A stretch of DNA of 64,000 nucleotides from an uncultured Thermoprotei archaeon (GCA_965367815.1 CBDUKN010000004.1:64001-128000), one strand, 5' to 3'; positions 1,139 through 11,032 are shown, numbered from the stretch's first letter. Program-made: numbers and translations. The notes: generated by a model from the letters alone, not told the origin.

Positions 1139-4100
1139 ATGAGTAGGCATATGAATAAAATATTAGTTACTGCCCTACTAGCTGCCCTCCTAGTAGCCCC
1201 CTTAATAGCCTACGTACCAAAAGCTCAGGCCCAGCCCTATGAATGGAAAGCCATCTATATCAAATTAGTAGACCAGCTAGGTAATCCAATTAGATGTGCA
1301 GAAGTAATAGTAATTTTATGGAATGCCTCAGTAAACCACGGAGCCTGGGACAGCACAAATAAGACAGAATGTCTACTATTATTCACTAGAACAAGTACCG
1401 ATGCTAACGGTACGCTAACTTTAAAACTTAATCTACCAGATAGTGCTCTAAGAAGTGATTCGGCCGGTCTCTATAACTTCACAATAATACTAGTAAAAGA
1501 TATCGGAGGAACAACATACTACTTCTTATTAAACTGGACCTATGACTCCTATCCCGATGGAGTACCAGCAAGCGTTCTTACAAGCTACTTCAATACCTCA
1601 GCAAACATACCGGGCATAATTACATGCTATCATTACTGGAACTTTAACTTCACAGTACTAGACAACTGTACACCAGATCACATTCCACTATACTATGAAG
1701 ATCCTAATACAGGAAAAGTAGACAAAGCCCTAGTAAAAGTATACTTCCCAGACAAAGACGGAACTAAAGTATTTGAAGAATATATCGACTCTAATGGCTA
1801 CACACCATACTTCAACTTCTCTGACACAAGAGTCGAGCTAGCCGCAGACCAGTGCCACATAAAGAACCTATATAACGTAACACTGTACAAAGAAGTATAC
1901 TGGAGCTGGGGCAACATTCTAGTAACAAAAGATTCTCTACAGTTTGTATCATACGTAGCCAATAGTAGCTGGCCATTAGGATGGGAGCCTTTCAGACATG
2001 ATTCAGTCATAACAGTAGGCACTGCACCATGGTATAACGTAACTACATACCTAGGACCAAACCTCTACGTAAATGACTTAATACTCACAGAAGATTTCAA
2101 CCCGACGACAACTCTACCATCAAATACAAATGACGTAAACATGACAGTAAGGCTAGACAGCGACCTAACAGTAGTTGATTACGCTTACACAGCAATGCTC
2201 AACTTTACTTTAACAGATGCGTGTGAAAATCCAATAGCTGGAACAACACTGATTAAGGTAGCTCTTGAATATGGAGACACTGTAGTGAGAGAAGCTCAGA
2301 CAACAAACGACACCGTACCATTACCAAACTATGGATACGAGTACCCATCTGGTTCAGGAAACTGGTATCTATGGGTTCCTGACGTTGAAACAGTATACGG
2401 CGGTAAGTACACACTCAAAGTAGTAGCAGAAAATGTCGGAGGTGGAGTGAGAATACCAATATTCGTAGACTACATATCTTACCCAACAAACTGCTCTAAG
2501 ATAGGTTATACACTGGGCATAAAGACAAGCCTAGTACCAATATCTATAAAGGTAGTAGATTCTGAGGAACCCGCACAGCCTCTAGTAAATGATCCATTTG
2601 GTGGAATAGAAGTGAAGATAGTAGTTAAAGGACCTTGGGGCGAGCTAGAAACAACCACAGCAGACTATGCTGGTTACAGAGGTTATGTCCTATTACCGCC
2701 TGCAAAACCCTTACCTACACCAGCACCTTGGTCAGCACTATATCCATATGGATACGTAGTAGTACCATATGGTGCATCTTCAGCTACATACGAAATTAAA
2801 GTATACTTCAAGGCAACTCATGGAGCCGAGTTCGTTGATGTAACTGATCCAAATAACTCAACAATAAAGGTTACAATAGACGATTGTCATAAAAACTATA
2901 TAGTAATAGCCAAAGTATATCAAGCAAAGATTAAGTTGTTAAGCCTCTGTGATGAGCCACTATCGTCAAAAGACTACCCAGATGCTAAAGTAGAAATATA
3001 CACTGAAGATGGTCTAAAGATAGCTGAAGTGCACTCAATACCAGAAGATGGAACAGTATTCATACCTAAGCTACCAGCAGGCGTATATAAGCTCAAGCTC
3101 TACTGGAAGTGCAGAGAACTAGAACCAACAGACGGAAAAGTACTAAATGTGACTGACAACATAAGAATAGCTGAAACATTCACATTCCCGGTAAGAAATC
3201 TTGCATTCCAGCTACTTTCATGGAACCCAGTACCAGGTAAAGAAGGAGTAACAGACGAAACTATAGGACTAATCGACGGCTATCAGGCAATAAGCGGACT
3301 AAACGCTACAATAATTTATGGCTGCGACTATAATGAGCCATGGCAGATAAGCAACTGTACAGGATGGGTAGAATTCAAGAAAGTACCAGTTGGATTAAAT
3401 GTAACACTAGTAGTTTACACGAACCAGACACCATTTACAAGACGCGAAGGCAAATTCGACGACAATATACTAGTATACGAGAAAAACATAACAGTACCAG
3501 TAGAGCCATGCACATACATTGAGAAAGTACACGTATGGATCTACAGCTTCTACATGCAGGCAGAGACATGTGAAGGAGAAGTACTAAAGAGCTTCAAGGT
3601 GAACGGAACAGCTTGGTACAACGTAACAGTAGTAATATGTGACACAACTTGGCAGAAAGAACCACCATACTGTGTAGAGCCAACACTACCATCCTGCCCA
3701 ACATGTGCACCACAGGCAGGTGAAATAACAGTAGACTTCAGAATAATGAACGTAAGCTATGCAAAGCCGTACCTACAGAGGGTAGGACTACCAGCAGATA
3801 TTGCTACAACTGAGCCAGAGGCCAAGTTCCTAATAACCTCAGCACAGTGGGATCCAGCTCATCCACACCTATTCGTAGCAGGAGCACGCTACACAGTCAA
3901 AGTATTCTACGGAGGAACCCTCGTATACAACTACACATTCAAGCTACCAAGACCAGACAAGGACGTAACATACATCTTCAACGAAACATACAGACTAATA
4001 CCATCCCTTGTAAACACAGCTGAATGGGACGAGTATCCAGACGGAGCAATCAAGGTAGTAGAAGAATATGACTATGAGGACGACTACAACTGGCTATATC

Positions 4101-6568
4101 ACCCAATACTCACAGTAAAAGGAGTAGAAGTAGGCGAGTATCCTGTCATCGAGCTCAGAACATGGGTAATACCACTGAGAGTCTGGACTTGGACAAAGTC
4201 CTACGCTCTAGAAGCTTGTGGAATAACACCAGACCATGAACCTTACTTAATACCCGGACTAAGAATCTACTTAAACTACAGTAGAGTACTAAACAACACA
4301 TTCACAGTAGACTACACACTATACAGCGCGATATGCGATGATGCAGAAACAGGATGGACTGAAGCGATATATAACGTATCAGCTACCGATGTAGACTTAA
4401 ATGGCTATGTAACATTCAATGTACCAGTATGGGTACCGAGAACAGCTGCAGCCAAACACTTCAACGGAATATCCTTCGGCAACAAGATAACTGGAGTACG
4501 GGTATATGCTGTAGGCGGAATAACGCCAGGTATACCGGGTGACAAAGAAGAAGTAGGACCGATTAACGAGTACTATGACTGCGACAACGAGGAATGGGTA
4601 CACTGGAACGACACTAAGGTAATTAACCCAGTTTATTACTTCCCGCCATGGAACGTAAGCGCAATTAACGAAGAGTGTATAACAATAACTGTCGTAGAGA
4701 AGGTGGGCGAAGAGTATGTATGCACAGAAACAGGCTACGAGACAGTACCAAAGTATGAAGAAGTAGAGCACATATTATGCGCTGGTCCAACATGGTGCGG
4801 TGTCGAGAAGAATGTGTCAACATCTTGTCTAGAGTGCTTCGCGGTACAAATTTATGGTTACGACGTCTGCGGTGAGGAAACACCAATAGCTTATCAGAAA
4901 GTAACAGTTGAAGTAAACACTGGTGAAGCTACACTCACAGTAGCCTCTGGTACAAAGAAGACAACTGACCCAATTAAGTTCGAGCCAACAACAGTTGAAG
5001 TATCAACACCATTCGGTACAGTCAAGAAGATAGTTGAAGGAGAGACACTGCCAGTATTCGCTTACATAGGCAAAGTCTACACAATCAAAGCGACTCACGA
5101 CATTGCAGCCAAGCTCAAAGACCTAGGATATTCACCAGACCTAGCAGACAAGTTCTGCCCAGAAGTATACTTAAGCACAACAATCGAGTTCACAAATGAC
5201 CACAATTGCGGTAAGACACCGATAGAATACGGCTGGAAGGCAATACTAATAGACCTCAAGGACATAGCTAACGTCAAGCCACTATCAAATATGGCAGTTG
5301 TTGCAGTCAAAGTAGGCACAAATGCTCCAGCAATATTCGACATTACTGACAAAGATGGTAAAGCAGTACTGTTAGTAGATGAAGGAACATACATAGTGCA
5401 AGTATACTGGAAAGACACACTATTCATCGAGACACCAATAAAGATATTCGACAGCTTCACAGACCAGCCGAATGCTTTCATAAACGGAGTAGTCGACATG
5501 AAGAGCGAAGGACCAGTAACAACAAAGACCATTGAAGCATACGTCTATGCACTAAGACTAAGACTAGTAAAGGCTGACGGAAAGACACCACTCAAGAAAG
5601 ATAATATATGGGTAGTAGTAGAGTGGCCAGATGGAACAAAGACAATACACGACTTCTGTGGAAAGTGTATAGCAGGCATTGCAGAGAACAAGGACACTAG
5701 ACTCGAACTAACAAGCAAGCTAACTCTAGAAGACAACCCAGAGTCCTGTTCAAGAGTACCTATCGGTACATACAAGGTAACTGTATACTACATTGCATCT
5801 GCTAAAGAAGGAGAGTACGCAAAAGCTAAAGAAGCAATAGAGGCCGGTAAAGTAGTCGTAATAGGAAGTGACACAGTAACTGTTGAAAAGATGAGACTTG
5901 GTACAGCGTCGAAAGTAGTAGACATTAAGTGTGATGTATACGACTTTACAGTAACAGTAGTGACACCATGGGGTACACCACTAGCAGGTGCTAAAGTCAA
6001 AGTAGAAGTACCTGCAACAGGTGAAACAATCGAAGGAACACTAGACGAAACAGGATCAATAACTCTAACAGACATTGCTAAAGGAGAAGTAAAAATCACA
6101 GTAACTGAGTGGAAGAATGTTGCAGTAAACTGGGAGACAACAGTAATTTACACTGCACCTAAAGTAGTATGTAGCAATATCGGAAAACTTGTAATCAAGA
6201 CTGTTGGTGCTCGTGGACAGCCACTAGATGCTGCTGTAGCAATCAAAGGAGTAACAACAGCTACTGCTAAGGAAGGAGTACTAGAAGTAGAGCTACCAGC
6301 AGGTAGCTATGAAGTAACAGTAGAGTACGGAGGAAAGAAGGTTACTGAAACACTCACAGTAGAGGCTGGCAAGGTAACTGAGAAGACATTCCAGCTAGAC
6401 ATCTTCATACAGCTAGCAGGATGGCCAATGACATTACCAGAGTTCTTCGGCTTCATACTGCTCATTGTCTTCATCATCATTGCACTGTTCTTATTAATGC
6501 ACGAGTACAGCGTCTGGAGAAGAAAGCGCCTAGCTAAAGCACTAGTACAAGCAAAACCAGCAAAATAA
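1139..6568 (+). CDS. Large secreted, C-terminally anchored surface glycoprotein (S-layer-like; tandem Ig/carboxypeptidase-regulatory-like beta domains)
   Basis: Signal peptide ending AQA; repeated beta modules (D..G.PI..A.V...TD.NG); many NxS/T sequons and Cys; C-terminal TM then WRRKR; strong A/C-ending codon bias. Confidence 0.8.
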   Translation: MSRHMNKILVTALLAALLVAPLIAYVPKAQAQPYEWKAIYIKLVDQLGNPIRCAEVIVILWNASVNHGAWDSTNKTECLLLFTRTSTDANGTLTLKLNLPDSALRSDSAGLYNFTIILVKDIGGTTYYFLLNWTYDSYPDGVPASVLTSYFNTSANIPGIITCYHYWNFNFTVLDNCTPDHIPLYYEDPNTGKVDKALVKVYFPDKDGTKVFEEYIDSNGYTPYFNFSDTRVELAADQCHIKNLYNVTLYKEVYWSWGNILVTKDSLQFVSYVANSSWPLGWEPFRHDSVITVGTAPWYNVTTYLGPNLYVNDLILTEDFNPTTTLPSNTNDVNMTVRLDSDLTVVDYAYTAMLNFTLTDACENPIAGTTLIKVALEYGDTVVREAQTTNDTVPLPNYGYEYPSGSGNWYLWVPDVETVYGGKYTLKVVAENVGGGVRIPIFVDYISYPTNCSKIGYTLGIKTSLVPISIKVVDSEEPAQPLVNDPFGGIEVKIVVKGPWGELETTTADYAGYRGYVLLPPAKPLPTPAPWSALYPYGYVVVPYGASSATYEIKVYFKATHGAEFVDVTDPNNSTIKVTIDDCHKNYIVIAKVYQAKIKLLSLCDEPLSSKDYPDAKVEIYTEDGLKIAEVHSIPEDGTVFIPKLPAGVYKLKLYWKCRELEPTDGKVLNVTDNIRIAETFTFPVRNLAFQLLSWNPVPGKEGVTDETIGLIDGYQAISGLNATIIYGCDYNEPWQISNCTGWVEFKKVPVGLNVTLVVYTNQTPFTRREGKFDDNILVYEKNITVPVEPCTYIEKVHVWIYSFYMQAETCEGEVLKSFKVNGTAWYNVTVVICDTTWQKEPPYCVEPTLPSCPTCAPQAGEITVDFRIMNVSYAKPYLQRVGLPADIATTEPEAKFLITSAQWDPAHPHLFVAGARYTVKVFYGGTLVYNYTFKLPRPDKDVTYIFNETYRLIPSLVNTAEWDEYPDGAIKVVEEYDYEDDYNWLYHPILTVKGVEVGEYPVIELRTWVIPLRVWTWTKSYALEACGITPDHEPYLIPGLRIYLNYSRVLNNTFTVDYTLYSAICDDAETGWTEAIYNVSATDVDLNGYVTFNVPVWVPRTAAAKHFNGISFGNKITGVRVYAVGGITPGIPGDKEEVGPINEYYDCDNEEWVHWNDTKVINPVYYFPPWNVSAINEECITITVVEKVGEEYVCTETGYETVPKYEEVEHILCAGPTWCGVEKNVSTSCLECFAVQIYGYDVCGEETPIAYQKVTVEVNTGEATLTVASGTKKTTDPIKFEPTTVEVSTPFGTVKKIVEGETLPVFAYIGKVYTIKATHDIAAKLKDLGYSPDLADKFCPEVYLSTTIEFTNDHNCGKTPIEYGWKAILIDLKDIANVKPLSNMAVVAVKVGTNAPAIFDITDKDGKAVLLVDEGTYIVQVYWKDTLFIETPIKIFDSFTDQPNAFINGVVDMKSEGPVTTKTIEAYVYALRLRLVKADGKTPLKKDNIWVVVEWPDGTKTIHDFCGKCIAGIAENKDTRLELTSKLTLEDNPESCSRVPIGTYKVTVYYIASAKEGEYAKAKEAIEAGKVVVIGSDTVTVEKMRLGTASKVVDIKCDVYDFTVTVVTPWGTPLAGAKVKVEVPATGETIEGTLDETGSITLTDIAKGEVKITVTEWKNVAVNWETTVIYTAPKVVCSNIGKLVIKTVGARGQPLDAAVAIKGVTTATAKEGVLEVELPAGSYEVTVEYGGKKVTETLTVEAGKVTEKTFQLDIFIQLAGWPMTLPEFFGFILLIVFIIIALFLLMHEYSVWRRKRLAKALVQAKPAK

Positions 6569-6602
6569 AGAAAACAAATAATAGTTAAATAAATATAATT
6601 AA

Positions 6603-6640
6603 ATTTTTGTCTTTCTTTACCTCTTCTCTCTAATTTTTCT
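6603..6640 (+). terminator. Probable archaeal pyrimidine/T-rich terminator
   Basis: TTTTTGTCTTTCTTT and TTTTTCT tracts just after the surface protein gene. Confidence 0.4.
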
Positions 6641-6674
6641 AGTAAAGTATATTAGGTGGCTCTCTAAGTGACAC

Positions 6675-9152
6675 TTGTATATGAGAAATCCGTGGATATA
6701 TAGTACTATAATTATTCTTTTCGTATTGCTTTCATGTATAAGTGCGTTTGAAGTAAACGTAAACTATGTGATTAGAGTGAGTCTTGTGGGAGAATATGTA
6801 AAGGCTTTATGTATTGACGGTATGTTATATCTAGTAACGAAGTACAATAATTCGTTTTATATGTTTGTTTTCAAGGGGGACAGCATCATTCGTGTCACTA
6901 AGCTAGATTCAGGGATTGTTGCTTACTGTCCTTATTTAAATACTCTAGCTACCTTTAATACTAGTGAAGGAAGCATAGTATTCAGGAGATTAACTTCTCT
7001 TGAAGAAAACAGTGTATTTTATTTAAATAAAAGTAATGTACATGACATTAATTTTGTAGACGACTTTTTAATAGTAACTGGCAATAGGTTTCTTCAAGTT
7101 TATTCACTAAAAACTCGTAAAAAGATCTGGGAAATATTTTTGCCTGTTATTTATAAATATGAAGCTTCTCCAGATAAAAAATACTTAGTTATTTACGCTA
7201 GTGACACTGAATGTGTAACATGTAGAGAATCCGAGGACTTTATAGAAGTGTGGAGTCTTGCTAACGGTACAGTAATTTGTCCTCGAAAAAACCTGAGGTT
7301 CGGTAGAAGTTGGTTTAAAATAGTAGAACAAGGTATTTTAGTCAGTATTGAGCAGACTTATGTTTATAATCAGAAAATTCTTCTATTAAACTATACTGGC
7401 GGAGAAATATGGTCGAAGCCTAAGAAAAGAATCGAGCATCTTTATGACGTCATAAGTAATTCAGAGTATATTGTTTTATCTAAAAGTGTAGGTAAAAATA
7501 GTAGTATTGAAATACTAAATGCGTCTAACGGAGAAACTCTGCGTACAGTTTTCTGGATTAATGAGGCTCCCTTTAAACTTCTCTTATTTAATAACACAGC
7601 GTTTCTAGCCTGCAATAATAGAGGCATATACCTCTACAATTTCGACGGAAAAATATTCTGGAACTATACGTTTGGTGAAGAAGAGCCTGTATATAAGTTG
7701 CTTAAAGTAGAATCCAATATAATTGTAGTTAAGCCGAAATACATTTACATAATTGCTTTAAGTAATTTTAGCGGTAAAAACGTTTTTAGAGAAAAATATA
7801 CTCTGCTAATTAAACTCAATAAGAAGAGCAATATAGATATTTTGAAAAATAACTCGTTACTGAAGAGAATCTACTCTACTCGGTATACAGCAATAGTTCT
7901 TTCGCCTAGTAAGTACATTGTGAATATAACTAGGGCAGGCTATACTAAAAGTATATACGTGAATATTACTTCACATAGCGTAGTATTAGATTTAACAAAA
8001 AAGGAGTATTTTAAAGAAAATACTACGAGTAAAAATGAAGTCGACATTGATTACTTAGTTGATTTATTAAAGAAAAATACTGAAAAGCATATAAAGTTAG
8101 ACAAGTATGAGGAATCCTATGTTTTAAAAGATATTTATGGTAAGCATGTTACAATAGATTCTTCAAAAAAGATAGTATTACTTTATTTCTTCTACATAGG
8201 GTGTACTGGATGTGAAAAAGCTTTGCCTTGGCTCAAAAATATAACAAAATACAGTAACTTAATGATAGTATGCGTAGATACTAGACCGAATATCGATACT
8301 TATGATAGGCTAGTAGACTATGCTTTAGGGCACGGAATGCCTTCTACTTGGCATATTATACTGGACTATAGCAACGAGCTTGTGAAAAAGTATAATGTAG
8401 TAGTTGCACCGACAATTGTTCTGCTGCATAGCAATAAGGCGTTATATAAGTTTGAAGGATATGCTGAAAAAAAGGAGGAGTATGAAATCAACATATTTTT
8501 CTACTTAGATAAATTTATCAAAGATTCCACATATTTCTTTAAAGATCTTGGAGTGGAAGGAGTACTAGTTGTTGCTTTACTTTTAGTAGCTGTGCTTACT
8601 GTATTTAAAGCATCTAATTCTAATATTTTGCGTGAAATAAAAGAGCATCCAGAGTTTTGGAGAAAGAACTTTTTCTTGCCTCTAACTTTAAGTCTGACAG
8701 CATATATAGTAGGTATACAGGTGATAGGTATTTTAACTTATTATGATAAAAAGATATGTATTATTCTGTGTAAGAATTTATATATTCTTGCTAGAAATAT
8801 TTTAAAGCTTGCAGAGCTTCAGGCTCTTATACAAGAAACAGGAATTGTTATTGAAGGAGTATTTATACCTTTTTCGGAATCACTTTTCTTTATACCTTTA
8901 TTCATTGCTGTTATTGTATTATTTTTAACTACTTCATGTATTAAAATTGGAGATAGAATAATACTGACTATACTGTCATGTATTGCTGTTACATTGGCCG
9001 AAGCTACGAGGATAATATTGATTGGTGTTATTGGGAAAGAGTACGCAGATATTAGAGTTTTCTTGGACTATATGAAGAGTCTGTATGTGCTTTTTGTAAT
9101 TATTTGCTGGAGTCTTTATATAAAGAGATACGCGTGTGAAGAAGAGGAGTGA
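6675..9152 (+). CDS. Secreted PQQ-like beta-propeller + TlpA-like thioredoxin domain + C-terminal multi-TM exosortase/archaeosortase-like domain
   Basis: Signal peptide; propeller repeats (NGTVIC, GGEIWS, DGKIFW); CVTC; FFYIGCTGC and VVVAPT (cis-Pro); TM region with AEATRI. Confidence 0.7.
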   Translation: MYMRNPWIYSTIIILFVLLSCISAFEVNVNYVIRVSLVGEYVKALCIDGMLYLVTKYNNSFYMFVFKGDSIIRVTKLDSGIVAYCPYLNTLATFNTSEGSIVFRRLTSLEENSVFYLNKSNVHDINFVDDFLIVTGNRFLQVYSLKTRKKIWEIFLPVIYKYEASPDKKYLVIYASDTECVTCRESEDFIEVWSLANGTVICPRKNLRFGRSWFKIVEQGILVSIEQTYVYNQKILLLNYTGGEIWSKPKKRIEHLYDVISNSEYIVLSKSVGKNSSIEILNASNGETLRTVFWINEAPFKLLLFNNTAFLACNNRGIYLYNFDGKIFWNYTFGEEEPVYKLLKVESNIIVVKPKYIYIIALSNFSGKNVFREKYTLLIKLNKKSNIDILKNNSLLKRIYSTRYTAIVLSPSKYIVNITRAGYTKSIYVNITSHSVVLDLTKKEYFKENTTSKNEVDIDYLVDLLKKNTEKHIKLDKYEESYVLKDIYGKHVTIDSSKKIVLLYFFYIGCTGCEKALPWLKNITKYSNLMIVCVDTRPNIDTYDRLVDYALGHGMPSTWHIILDYSNELVKKYNVVVAPTIVLLHSNKALYKFEGYAEKKEEYEINIFFYLDKFIKDSTYFFKDLGVEGVLVVALLLVAVLTVFKASNSNILREIKEHPEFWRKNFFLPLTLSLTAYIVGIQVIGILTYYDKKICIILCKNLYILARNILKLAELQALIQETGIVIEGVFIPFSESLFFIPLFIAVIVLFLTTSCIKIGDRIILTILSCIAVTLAEATRIILIGVIGKEYADIRVFLDYMKSLYVLFVIICWSLYIKRYACEEEE

Positions 9153-9154
9153 AG

Positions 9155-11032
9155 CTAGCCGCGTAATATTATTGTTGACGGCCCTGGGATTATTTTTAAT
9201 AAACTATTTGTATTTACCTTAATGCCAGTTCTTTTATAGAAGAATAGCTGTATTTTTTTAGAAATGAGATTTTTATCGATTCGTCCTGGTACTAGCACGA
9301 CGTAACACAGGGATTTTTCTAGTATTGCTGAGGGAGGGCCATAGATTACTTTATAGTCGTTTTTTCTTAAGCCTATGGCCAGTTTAAGCTCTGCTTTAAT
9401 GTAGTTTCTTTTTCCTCTTATCATGAAGGCTCCCTTAGTTAAGTATTCTCCTGAAGGAGGTGTTTTTGATACTTGGTCTGCTTTAACGTAGTAGACGTCT
9501 ATTGATGAGAATCCTGCGGTCCATGCTCTCGAGTAAGAAGCGGCGAATATGGCGGCTTCTTGTATTGACTGTGTTCCTGCTTTTTCGCCTTCTTTGAGTA
9601 CTACAGCTGAGCCTCCGTGTATATCTGCGTGGAAAAAAAGGTCTCCTGGTTTCAGATACTTTTTGACTACTACTTCGTTTTGAGCTGCAGTTTTTCCTCC
9701 AATGACTAAGAATCCTTCAGACGTATAGAACCACAGGAATTGCTCAAACCACTTCTCTTTAGCTTCGGGCTTCTTTATACTCGATAGAGTTTTTTCTAAA
9801 ATAAGCGTTTTCTTTGACTCTAGTTCCTCTATTTTCTTTAGAAGTTCTTTTATTTTCTCTCTGCCGACAGAGGCCTTTCTCTCGTATTCTTTCGCTTTTT
9901 CAAATACTTTTTCCACAATTTTTCCTGCAGTTGTGGGCAGAGGCACTTCTATGCCTTCGACAATTACTTTTCTAGAGTTTAGCTTAATGGCTGCAGGCAG
10001 GTCTACTTTTTCTCCTTGGAGAAGTTTTTCAAGTAAATGCATGTTGCTTAAAAGTATGTGGCCCTTTTCTTTAAGTAGCCTAGCTTTTTCCTCATTTTCT
10101 TTAACAGCCTCCTCTAGCTTCCTTATAGATGCTTCAAGCTTCATTTTCTTTTCTTCAAATTCACTATACTTATCTTTTGAAAGAGACTCAACAACAGTTT
10201 TCTTAAAATACTCGTATACTAGCTGACAGAAACTACTGTACTTTCTTTTAACTAAATCTCTGTATATAGTGAGGTCTACAGGTGAAAAAGAATAGTAGTT
10301 ACTGTCCTTGATGTATAGAGTAGGGTCTAGAGAATTCTCAGCAACCCTCGATAGAAGGTCTAGTGCGGCTTCTCTCAGCTTTTCGATTTCTTTTACTTGA
10401 AGAGAAGATGCTTTAGAGTTCTTAGGAACTCCAGCTCTAGCGCATACTTCTTCAGCTAGTTCGCCGGATAAATTGAAGTACCGGGCGAGAGTGCGGACTA
10501 CATCTGAGTTAGATTCACTGAAGTACTTCAAATAGTCGTCTAAACTAGAATCAGGCCTAGTTCCCCTCACCGGAGGATAAGTATAAGCAGTATTTGGTTT
10601 AACTACGTGGTCTCTGTATTCTACAAAACAGTGTGCTGAAACTACTCTACGCGCAGAATCTAAGAGAATAATGTTTCCTCCGCGCATAAGTTCGAGGACC
10701 AAGTACTGGTCACCGGCTCTGCTGCTGACTTTTACTTCAATTATTCTGTCTAACTGTGGCTGAAAAATGTCTTTGATAATACCTCCTCTCAAGTACTTTC
10801 TCAGAATTTTACAAAAAGCAGTAGGCTCTCTTTTTTCACCGAGATCTTCTTCTGATACAGTAATGAAGCTGCCCAGCTTATAGATAATAAATAATGTTTG
10901 TTCACGGGACTTTATTTTCAGTAAGAGAATGTCGCCTAAATGATATACATTTGCTATACGCCCTCCCTGAACCAAGCTGCGTGCTTCTCGGACAAAAGCA
11001 GCTACATCTAAAATATTCATTTCTCTTTTCAT
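9155..11032 (-). CDS. rqcH: Ribosome quality-control protein Rqc2/NEMF (NFACT)
   Basis: QPQLDRII, ELMRGGNIIL, KWFEQFLWF, FFHADIHGG, VSKTPPSGEYL.KGAFMIRG. Confidence 0.93.
   Translation of the reverse strand: MKREMNILDVAAFVREARSLVQGGRIANVYHLGDILLLKIKSREQTLFIIYKLGSFITVSEEDLGEKREPTAFCKILRKYLRGGIIKDIFQPQLDRIIEVKVSSRAGDQYLVLELMRGGNIILLDSARRVVSAHCFVEYRDHVVKPNTAYTYPPVRGTRPDSSLDDYLKYFSESNSDVVRTLARYFNLSGELAEEVCARAGVPKNSKASSLQVKEIEKLREAALDLLSRVAENSLDPTLYIKDSNYYSFSPVDLTIYRDLVKRKYSSFCQLVYEYFKKTVVESLSKDKYSEFEEKKMKLEASIRKLEEAVKENEEKARLLKEKGHILLSNMHLLEKLLQGEKVDLPAAIKLNSRKVIVEGIEVPLPTTAGKIVEKVFEKAKEYERKASVGREKIKELLKKIEELESKKTLILEKTLSSIKKPEAKEKWFEQFLWFYTSEGFLVIGGKTAAQNEVVVKKYLKPGDLFFHADIHGGSAVVLKEGEKAGTQSIQEAAIFAASYSRAWTAGFSSIDVYYVKADQVSKTPPSGEYLTKGAFMIRGKRNYIKAELKLAIGLRKNDYKVIYGPPSAILEKSLCYVVLVPGRIDKNLISKKIQLFFYKRTGIKVNTNSLLKIIPGPSTIILRG

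Follow-up and report, generated by a model that had tools for sequence, protein, structure and literature searches.

The PEF-CTERM/archaeosortase C sorting system was reportedly described by Haft et al. in 2012. It is cited in PMC5244752 and PMC6098224 as the system of Haft et al. 2012, and archaeosortases are given as known from a subset of the Euryarchaeota, with the Sulfolobales having none (PMC6098224). A further system of relevance is PySLP, the 292-kDa surface-layer (S-layer) protein of Pyrobaculum, which was identified in August 2026 (Caspy et al., bioRxiv 10.64898/2026.08.21.746120). That preprint places PySLP homologues across the Thermoproteales and, by HHpred, in the Thermofilales (Thermofilum pendens, Infirmifilum uzonense). 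These homologues have in common tandem immunoglobulin (Ig)-like domains, a beta-hairpin close to the membrane that contains a Phe, a transmembrane (TM) helix and a basic tail that ends in Lys, and the authors propose that the C-terminal helix anchors the S-layer in the membrane (10.64898/2026.08.21.746120). Here these systems are compared with a two-gene locus of an uncultured Thermoprotei archaeon, located in a stretch of 64,000 nucleotides (GCA_965367815.1 CBDUKN010000004.1:64001-128000) that is called the window below. The locus consists of P0001 (1139..6568, plus strand), an open reading frame (ORF) for a PySLP-like candidate S-layer protein of 1809 amino acids (aa), and, co-oriented and separated from it by 106 bp, P0002 (6675..9152, plus strand), a chimeric gene for 825 aa with a probable start at ATG 6681.

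An initial annotation of this DNA had read the locus as a maturation system, in which P0002 captures the C-terminal anchor of P0001 and drives its disulfide folding. That proposal is not upheld: the membrane domain of P0002 is missing the catalytic residues and the gene pair is not syntenic. P0001 and P0002 are probably two unrelated neighbours, an S-layer gene beside an inserted chimeric oxidoreductase, and probably do not make up a maturation system. P0001 would be secreted by the Sec pathway, Cys-rich and heavily N-glycosylated, and would stay in the membrane through its own C-terminal helix and basic cytoplasmic tail; sortase-type processing of its C-terminus would not be expected. The first part of P0002 is a diverged copy of an order-wide ecto-oxidoreductase, with a CxxC-bearing propeller, a beta-sandwich and a TlpA/ResA-like thioredoxin (CxGC, cis-Pro). 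Its second part would be a copy of the mini exosortase-fold domain of P0004, a gene specific to the genus; devoid of the Cys and His that transpeptidation requires, it would act as a non-catalytic membrane module (anchor or dock). Direct observations on P0002 concern its domain architecture, its paralogy, its insertion and its missing catalytic residues; any dedicated link between it and the S-layer protein is hypothetical.

Insertion and strain variation of P0002

P0002 is a recently inserted, strain-variable accessory gene that lies inside the 3' end of an NFACT-family gene. In another genome of the same genus (G001), 38 bp separate the end of the S-layer orthologue (1796 aa) from a convergent NFACT gene, and there is no gene between the two. 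The NFACT gene of the window (9155..11032, minus strand) had its 3' end displaced by the insertion and is without its last four codons, and comparison with G001 (..ILEKR) identifies a remnant of the ancestral 3' end, ..IREKR-stop, upstream of P0002 (6616..6634, minus strand). Eight S-layer loci with at least 2.6 kb of downstream sequence, taken from 16 named S-layer loci, were searched with P0002-ectodomain, membrane-domain and archaeosortase profiles, and none of the eight has a match outside the S-layer ORF. The GC content of P0002 is 0.314 versus 0.386 for the genome, so that P0002 ranks within the bottom 17 of the 991 ORFs of at least 300 aa (lowest 1.7%).

Logan contigs were compared across window positions 5800-9900, using runs X1 and X2 and a third run, X3, from a different study. 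X1 and X2 contigs carry the form seen in the window, one spanning 6500-9174 and another 6676-9401. Both junctions of P0002 are thus real, since they are covered by these contigs. Both of these metagenome runs, either of which may be the source sample, additionally contain a contig without P0002, in which 6568 is joined to 9372 with 296 other letters between them and about 97% identity in the flanks. Checked for synteny, the pair is broken at the G001 site, at eight of eight other loci and in the X1/X2 variant, in each of which P0002 is absent.

It might be argued that P0002 is a young, decaying or functionless insertion chimera, whose AT-richness and divergence stem from relaxed selection. The low GC content and the presence/absence polymorphism just described would fit such a gene, as would an identity of only 28% to the nearest paralogue across the whole ectodomain and a fusion that has no homologue elsewhere in the searches made. 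Decay is nevertheless unlikely in our view, given that the frame of 825 codons is intact, that none of the 11 family-invariant positions, among them both CxxC motifs and the cis-Pro, has been lost, and that the ectodomain has a confident AlphaFold2 (AF2) fold. The X3 allele, moreover, is 93-94% identical and differs over 1.2 kb by 79 substitutions but by no indel.

Just ahead of the gene, positions 6640-6660 of the window form an AT-rich, TATA-like stretch, AAAGTATATTA, about 30 nt before ATG 6681. The G001 sequence that aligns here is the 3' coding end of NFACT, and the stretch may represent a promoter that arose where the insertion joins the older sequence.

The ectodomain of P0002 and its paralogues

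P0002 is a divergent paralogue of an order-wide membrane-anchored ectoprotein, with a membrane domain fused to it. The parts listed in the initial annotation (signal peptide, CVTC propeller, CTGC TlpA-like thioredoxin and membrane domain) are real features of the sequence, the signal peptide appearing as an N-terminal hydrophobic helix. All coordinates that follow are on the plus strand. An N-terminal signal/anchor helix (6696..6749; hydrophobic residues 8-25, AF2 helix 4-22) precedes an eight-bladed beta-propeller (6765..7757; AF2 strands 29-359), which carries its CxxC motif, CVTC, at residues 180-183 (7212..7223). A beta-sandwich domain (7797..7991; AF2 strands 373-437) leads to the TlpA/ResA-like thioredoxin domain (8046..8456), which is defined by PF13098, the alignment and AF2 and which holds CTGC at residues 510-513 (8202-8213) and a cis-Pro motif (8403-8414). 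A TM helix at residues 629-644 (8559..8606) is the counterpart of the sole C-terminal anchor in the family of P0003, described below. PF13098 matches P0002 at 33.7 bits, with a cut-off of 27. The AF2 model of residues 3-632, built on a 19-row alignment, has a predicted local distance difference test (pLDDT) score of 81.9, and the best Foldseek matches of the ectodomain in the PDB are eight-bladed propellers, namely Tako8, BamB and an archaeal YVTN propeller. Both Cys of the CVTC motif, the C, G and C of the CTGC motif and the P-T of the cis-Pro motif are invariant in 19 of 19 rows of the family alignment (C178, C181, C508, G510, C511, P577 and T578).

The conserved paralogue P0003 (42014..44680, plus strand; 888 aa) is built in the order propeller-CxxC, PEGA/CarboxypepD_reg, thioredoxin-CHGC and a single C-terminal TM helix. 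It is matched by PQQ_2, PEGA, CarboxypepD_reg and AhpC-TSA/thioredoxin, and its PEGA and CarboxypepD_reg matches fall where the beta-sandwich of P0002 lies. P0002 and P0003 share 35% and 31% identity over residues 139-598. Word-indexed homologue searches with parts of P0002 returned only P0002 itself and P0003, and P0002 is matched in 28 of 61 related genomes. Among 19 fetched loci of the family (L003-L021), 17 have an ORF with both the propeller CxxC and the thioredoxin CxGC, and the remaining two have short ORFs (424 and 436 aa) with the thioredoxin part only; a multi-helix C-terminal domain is found in none of the 19. In ten relatives and in the archaeon's own genome, a distance of 18-42 kb separates the gene of the P0003 type from the S-layer gene, and the two are never adjacent.

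P0002 most likely acts in thiol-disulfide exchange like its conserved paralogue P0003, and the likely targets are secreted Cys-rich proteins outside the membrane. An order-wide ectoprotein with two invariant CxxC motifs, in a genome without CcdA or VKOR, is a candidate for extracytoplasmic disulfide chemistry in hyperthermophiles. The literature searched contained nothing on extracellular thioredoxin-propeller disulfide proteins of Thermoproteota.

The membrane domain of P0002 and P0004

The C-terminal part of P0002 (residues ~666-825; 8670..9149, plus strand) is a five-helix exosortase-like domain without the catalytic Cys and His, marked by the motifs IPFS (8865-8876), AEATR (8997-9011) and LDY (9063-9071). 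It shares 34% identity (E 2.6e-15) with the C-terminus of P0004, a protein of 417 aa encoded on another contig, whose Cys-less exosortase-like domain follows two thioredoxin-fold domains without Cys and a linker rich in Pro and Lys. P0004 is the conserved home of this rare membrane domain, and lies between nitroreductase and UPP-synthase genes both at L001:691-1941 (G000:C13) and in G001 (L023:751-1980). As P0004 has no signal peptide, its thioredoxin-fold domains are probably cytoplasmic. The membrane domain occurs in two of 41 genomes of the order, both of this genus, and an hmmsearch with the three-sequence profile against 1.84 billion representatives returned nothing beyond P0002 itself and the P0004 orthologue of G001. 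A further, weak match to the domain, at G000:C4:17122-17454, was rejected, being antisense to real genes and interrupted by two stops.

The initial annotation had called this domain exosortase-like, and the fold, though not the catalytic Cys and His, supports that description. Most probably, the domain is remotely related to the exosortase/archaeosortase fold. Compared by hhalign with 20 archaeosortase domains of the phylum, the three-row alignment gave a probability of 70.6% (P 3.9e-5) and a score of 38.1. Among the controls, neither the reversed alignment nor any of 20 column shuffles scored above 16.3, and none of 33 real multi-TM ORFs from the genome exceeded 22.1; the three sequences taken singly scored 31.2, 21.6 and 31.3. 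Matches to hidden Markov models (HMMs) stay below threshold. PF09721 matches P0004 at E 0.0017 (18.3 bits, cut-off 25.7), a six-frame scan of the genome with TIGR04178 found P0004 (19.5 bits) and P0002 (15.3 bits) only, with a cut-off of 23, and the exosortase models at that cut-off give 7.2 and 15.3 bits for P0002 and 15.3 and 19.5 for P0004. The nearest named clusters in the ESM Atlas, whose scores are leads and not tests, are all PF09721 (cosine 0.89-0.90), and structural TM-scores versus short exosortase clusters are 0.71/0.64 and 0.74/0.75. The AF2 model built from the 3-row alignment is poor (pLDDT 57.2), and its low-confidence secondary structure (helices, beta-hairpin, helices) agrees with the aligned exosortase core. 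Foldseek with this model found nothing in the PDB at E <= 0.001, and a PDB search with one archaeosortase sequence found no solved exosortase relative.

All 20 of the true archaeosortases compared, which come from the phylum, have the Cys, the Arg and the His. None of the three membrane domains has a Cys in the aligned stretch, the C-S-G segment being a deletion in both the hhalign and the HMMER alignment. In place of Asn-x-x-Arg the three sequences have E..R, E..R and D..K, and none of their His residues is conserved, with an invariant Tyr standing at the His position or one residue off it. The domain thus most probably has the fold without the Cys-Arg-His chemistry, 'invariant' being a weak word for three sequences. 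A catalytically stripped exosortase-fold domain appears to occur in the Thermofilales, fused both times to thioredoxin-fold modules. No description of an exosortase-thioredoxin fusion or of a catalytically inactive pseudo-exosortase was found in the literature searched, and a Cys/His-less exosortase-fold domain fused to thioredoxin-fold modules is new in the sense that no paper there matches it.

Such a domain might matter to P0001 as a non-catalytic dock, binding the C-terminal helix of the substrate and keeping the ecto-oxidoreductase beside the S-layer anchor as a dedicated foldase. The exosortase fold and the adjacency of P0001 and P0002 would agree with this, as would the fusion to thioredoxin-fold modules in both known hosts of the domain and the retention in P0002 of every invariant redox residue of its family. 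However, the thioredoxin-like domains of P0004 have no CxxC and, without a signal peptide, are probably cytoplasmic, and P0002 is dispensable in close relatives whose S-layer protein is 88% identical. We judge a docking role to be improbable.

P0001 and its C-terminal tail

Judged from its sequence, P0001 is a new member of the just-described S-layer family and would be an ordinary membrane-anchored S-layer protein of a PySLP-like family of Thermoproteota, a role that comes from homology to the preprint family. The C-terminal 410 residues of P0001 are matched in 51 of 61 related genomes, typically by one ORF of ~1650-1950 aa each, and the named relatives are metagenome-assembled genomes (MAGs) of Thermofilaceae, Thermofilum and Infirmifilum. 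The last ~125 residues also match ORFs of 2657-2861 aa in a sister family, and the tails of two such ORFs, of ~2670 aa, read ..GLD[LF]FGTRIPLPTL-TM-IEYNNWRRRRLMQILAPPK. P0001 has a predicted Sec-type signal peptide (residues 1-31, AQA at its end; 1139..1231, plus strand), and CarboxypepD_reg (PF13620; 40.8 bits) is its sole domain over the cut-off, matches to SpaA, MG4 and Big_1 being sub-threshold. A PDB search with the profile of the family found just a 114-aa assembly factor (E 6e-4). The Cys-richness and the many sequons on which the initial annotation had remarked were confirmed, with 35 Cys (1.93%) and 35 N-x-S/T counted.

The PySLP-type pattern of membrane-proximal segment, TM helix and basic tail with a terminal Lys is present in P0001, in the order ..LDIFIQLAGWPMTLPEF-FGFILLIVFIIIALFLLM-HEYSVWRRKR-LAKALVQAKPAK, and recurs in the ~2670-aa ORFs of the sister family. 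The conserved membrane-proximal segment, LDIFIQLAGWPMT (6395..6433, plus strand), has D1754, A1760, G1761, W1762 and M1764 invariant in nine of nine homologues and might, by analogy, be the beta-hairpin described for PySLP homologues. It is followed by LPEF (6434..6445), by the C-terminal TM helix (6443..6499), which is kept in all homologues, and by the cytoplasmic HEYSVWRRKR cluster with its tail (6500..6565). The initial annotation had seen here a PEF-CTERM-like sorting signal at the very end of the protein. The codons for P-E-F (nt 6437-6445), the 19-residue hydrophobic helix and the WRRKR cluster are as it described, but the protein does not end there and runs on for 12 residues, LAKALVQAKPAK.

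The PEF itself is poorly kept. In the nine-row alignment the invariant residues near the junction are A1760, G1761, W1762, M1764, F1769, G1771, H1788, Y1790 and R1794, so that F1769 alone of LPEF is invariant and P1767 and E1768 are absent from the set. LPEF occurs in three of the nine family members of the protein collection, all from one genus-level clade, and the other six read SNEF, FSEF (two), SMEF, FGDF and FGTF. Of 16 genome loci, three have incomplete tails and were dropped; among the 13 complete tails PEF occurs once, in the same-genus genome. Elsewhere the position is taken by SEF, AEF, TEF, GEF, SAF, SQF, NEF, MEF, GDF or GTF, except in one tail, which lacks a motif of this kind. 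When P0001 in full and its last 89 aa were scanned with NCBIfam, there was no PEF-CTERM row at E up to 10, the best C-terminal row being Heimdall-CTERM (E 0.35 and 1.1). Sixty ORFs of the genome end in a helix and basic cluster, and LPEF is found in two of the 60, namely P0001 and a 238-aa paralogue; the two carriers share a common module of ~200 aa and are not unrelated proteins.

Nor is a canonical enzyme in evidence. The genome, which is 99.4% complete, has no PF09721 or TIGR04178 match over the cut-off. PF09721 is matched at E <= 0.001 in 42 of 201 sampled genomes of the phylum, and in the sampled families of the archaeon's own class in 0/3, 0/1, 0/15 and 0/6 genomes. PEF as an archaeosortase sorting signal was rejected on these grounds, with the Pro confined to one genus, no model match and no canonical archaeosortase in the genome. 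It is not a conserved signal, because the Pro is genus-confined, PEF-CTERM models do not match and the tail appears to be a PySLP-like anchoring module. In these alignments, 'PEF' is a genus-specific spelling of the conserved x-E-F junction at which the predicted helix of P0001 starts.

The most far-reaching alternative would make P0002 or P0004 a working archaeosortase-type enzyme, which recognises LPEF-TM-RRKR and cleaves or re-anchors the S-layer protein, the fused thioredoxin and propeller folding its disulfides. It can draw on the exosortase-fold homology of the membrane domain, on the presence of LPEF and the domain together in one genus, on the adjacency of P0001 and P0002 both in the window and in run X3, and on the Cys content, which is 33-36 per protein in the P0001 clade versus 9-25 in other homologues. 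Against it, three of three domains have no Cys near the catalytic position and no conserved His, both of which are present in 20 of 20 true members, and Arg is Lys in one of the three. The tail has no PEF-CTERM match and continues past the basic cluster with a conserved 12-residue extension. P0002 is missing from the sister genome and from the co-occurring variant, and the tail module is conserved in genomes in which neither the domain (two of 41 in the order) nor PF09721 (sampled genomes of the class) is found. We give this alternative hardly any credence.

A modified form of the idea would have the Cys-less exosortase-fold domain, in P0004 and in its copy in P0002, still recognise C-terminal anchors, be it with the activity of a Ser/Tyr/Arg variant enzyme or simply as the dock of a pseudo-enzyme. 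Its targets would be the two LPEF-tailed proteins, P0001 and the 238-aa paralogue, and in strains that have it P0002 would bring a redox module to the nascent, unusually Cys-rich S-layer protein. This is a long shot; if true, anchor recognition by a Cys-less domain would be a new function of the sortase family and its first in Thermoprotei.

Several points weigh against the reading of P0001 and P0002 as unrelated neighbours. In X3, contigs with 93-96% identity run from the last part of the S-layer gene across into P0002 (6387-7363), and a further X3 contig reaches 8571, with 93-94% identity, 79 substitutions and no indels over 7354-8571; the comparison stops at 8571, there being no cover of at least 85% likeness over 8572-9800, where the membrane domain lies. 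The adjacency thus persists in a second close population with the frame kept, and P0002 looks maintained. Both LPEF and the exosortase-like domain (P0004) are restricted to this one genus, so that they co-occur, though in a single lineage. In an ungapped reading of the membrane domain, the invariant Ser of IPFS stands 45 residues before the conserved Arg, with Lys or Arg at +27 as in true archaeosortases. Since 45 residues is the canonical Cys-Arg spacing, there may be a non-Cys active site at this Ser, 'invariant' here referring to three sequences only. A search of the genome for a redox partner of the ecto-thioredoxin gave no match to DsbD/CcdA or to VKOR. The S-layer role of P0001, finally, comes from homology to a preprint family only.

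The initial annotation had itself named three findings that would count against a maturation system, namely a membrane domain without an exosortase fold, orthologues without PEF and a gene pair that is not syntenic elsewhere. The orthologues outside the genus are without PEF and synteny is lacking, whereas an exosortase fold is most probably present. Two unrelated neighbours, an S-layer gene and an inserted oxidoreductase, are still the probable arrangement.

Variable cassette, short paralogue and neighbouring genes

P0001 and P0007, a protein sourced from Logan, are 88% identical overall and just 66% identical across the C-terminal 410 residues. The difference sits mainly in a swapped cassette, and the last ~200 residues are again near-identical. 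Comparison with P0007 and P0008 places the variable cassette at P0001 residues ~1390-1620 (window ~5300-6000, plus strand). This concentration of the divergence in one cassette suggests that the stalk of the S-layer has been diversified by mosaicism or recombination.

The 238-aa paralogue (G000:C2:99382-99990, minus strand) corresponds to just the last ~200 residues of P0001 and comprises a pair of beta-sandwich domains together with the membrane-proximal segment, LPEF, TM helix and basic tail. ORFs of ~230-260 aa like it are present in many relatives and widely conserved in the order, and the paralogue might partner the S-layer as a stalk or an anchor. At the Thermofilaceae loci L050, L056, L057, L062, L063 and L064, co-oriented ORFs of ~250-330, 190-285 and 610-680 aa recur 3' of the S-layer gene. 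The neighbours of the pair in the window (HAD hydrolase, NFACT, RadA paralogues, NrdD, NERD and enolase-superfamily) showed no functional link to it.

Comparison with known systems

P0001 resembles the proteins of the PEF-CTERM/archaeosortase C system in a superficial tripartite look, made up of P-E-F, a hydrophobic helix and a basic cluster. It differs from them in that no model matches, the Pro is not conserved and 12 residues follow the basic cluster; in addition, this genome has two paralogous carriers only and no archaeosortase C.

The exosortase/archaeosortase family (PF09721 Exosortase_EpsH, TIGR04178 exo_archaeo; above all short forms like exosortase X/Y) and the membrane domain of P0002 and P0004 have in common a predicted core of helix, beta-hairpin and helix, matching helix lengths and loop positions, and basic residues at the Lys and Arg positions. 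In size the domain is similar to mini-exosortase clusters of 146-204 aa. Unlike the family, its HMM scores are all under the curated cut-offs, an invariant IPFS replaces the catalytic Cys, Tyr stands for His and Glu/Asp for Asn, and the domain, of which three sequences are known, is fused behind thioredoxin-fold domains.

With TlpA, ResA and DsbE, P0002 shares the thioredoxin fold, the CxxC, the cis-Pro and the tether to the outer face of the membrane. In contrast to these proteins, it has a preceding eight-bladed propeller with a second invariant CxxC, as well as a beta-sandwich, and no CcdA/DsbD partner was detected in its genome.

Compared with PySLP-like proteins, P0001 is shorter (1809 versus ~2670 aa) and has more Cys (35 versus the 14 reported for PySLP). 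Its lattice-forming part has no detectable similarity to the Pyrobaculum-type ORFs, which are matched by its last ~125 residues only. It is nevertheless these proteins, as the preprint describes them, that P0001 most resembles: it is large, with a predicted Sec-dependent secretion, a putative Ig-like/beta-sandwich build, many Cys and candidate N-glycosylation sites, an aromatic residue in the membrane-proximal segment, one TM helix at the C-terminus and, behind it, a basic cytoplasmic tail whose last residue is Lys. The main value of the comparison is corrective, in that a tail of PEF, helix and basic cluster that looks like an archaeosortase signal would instead be the anchoring module of an S-layer protein.

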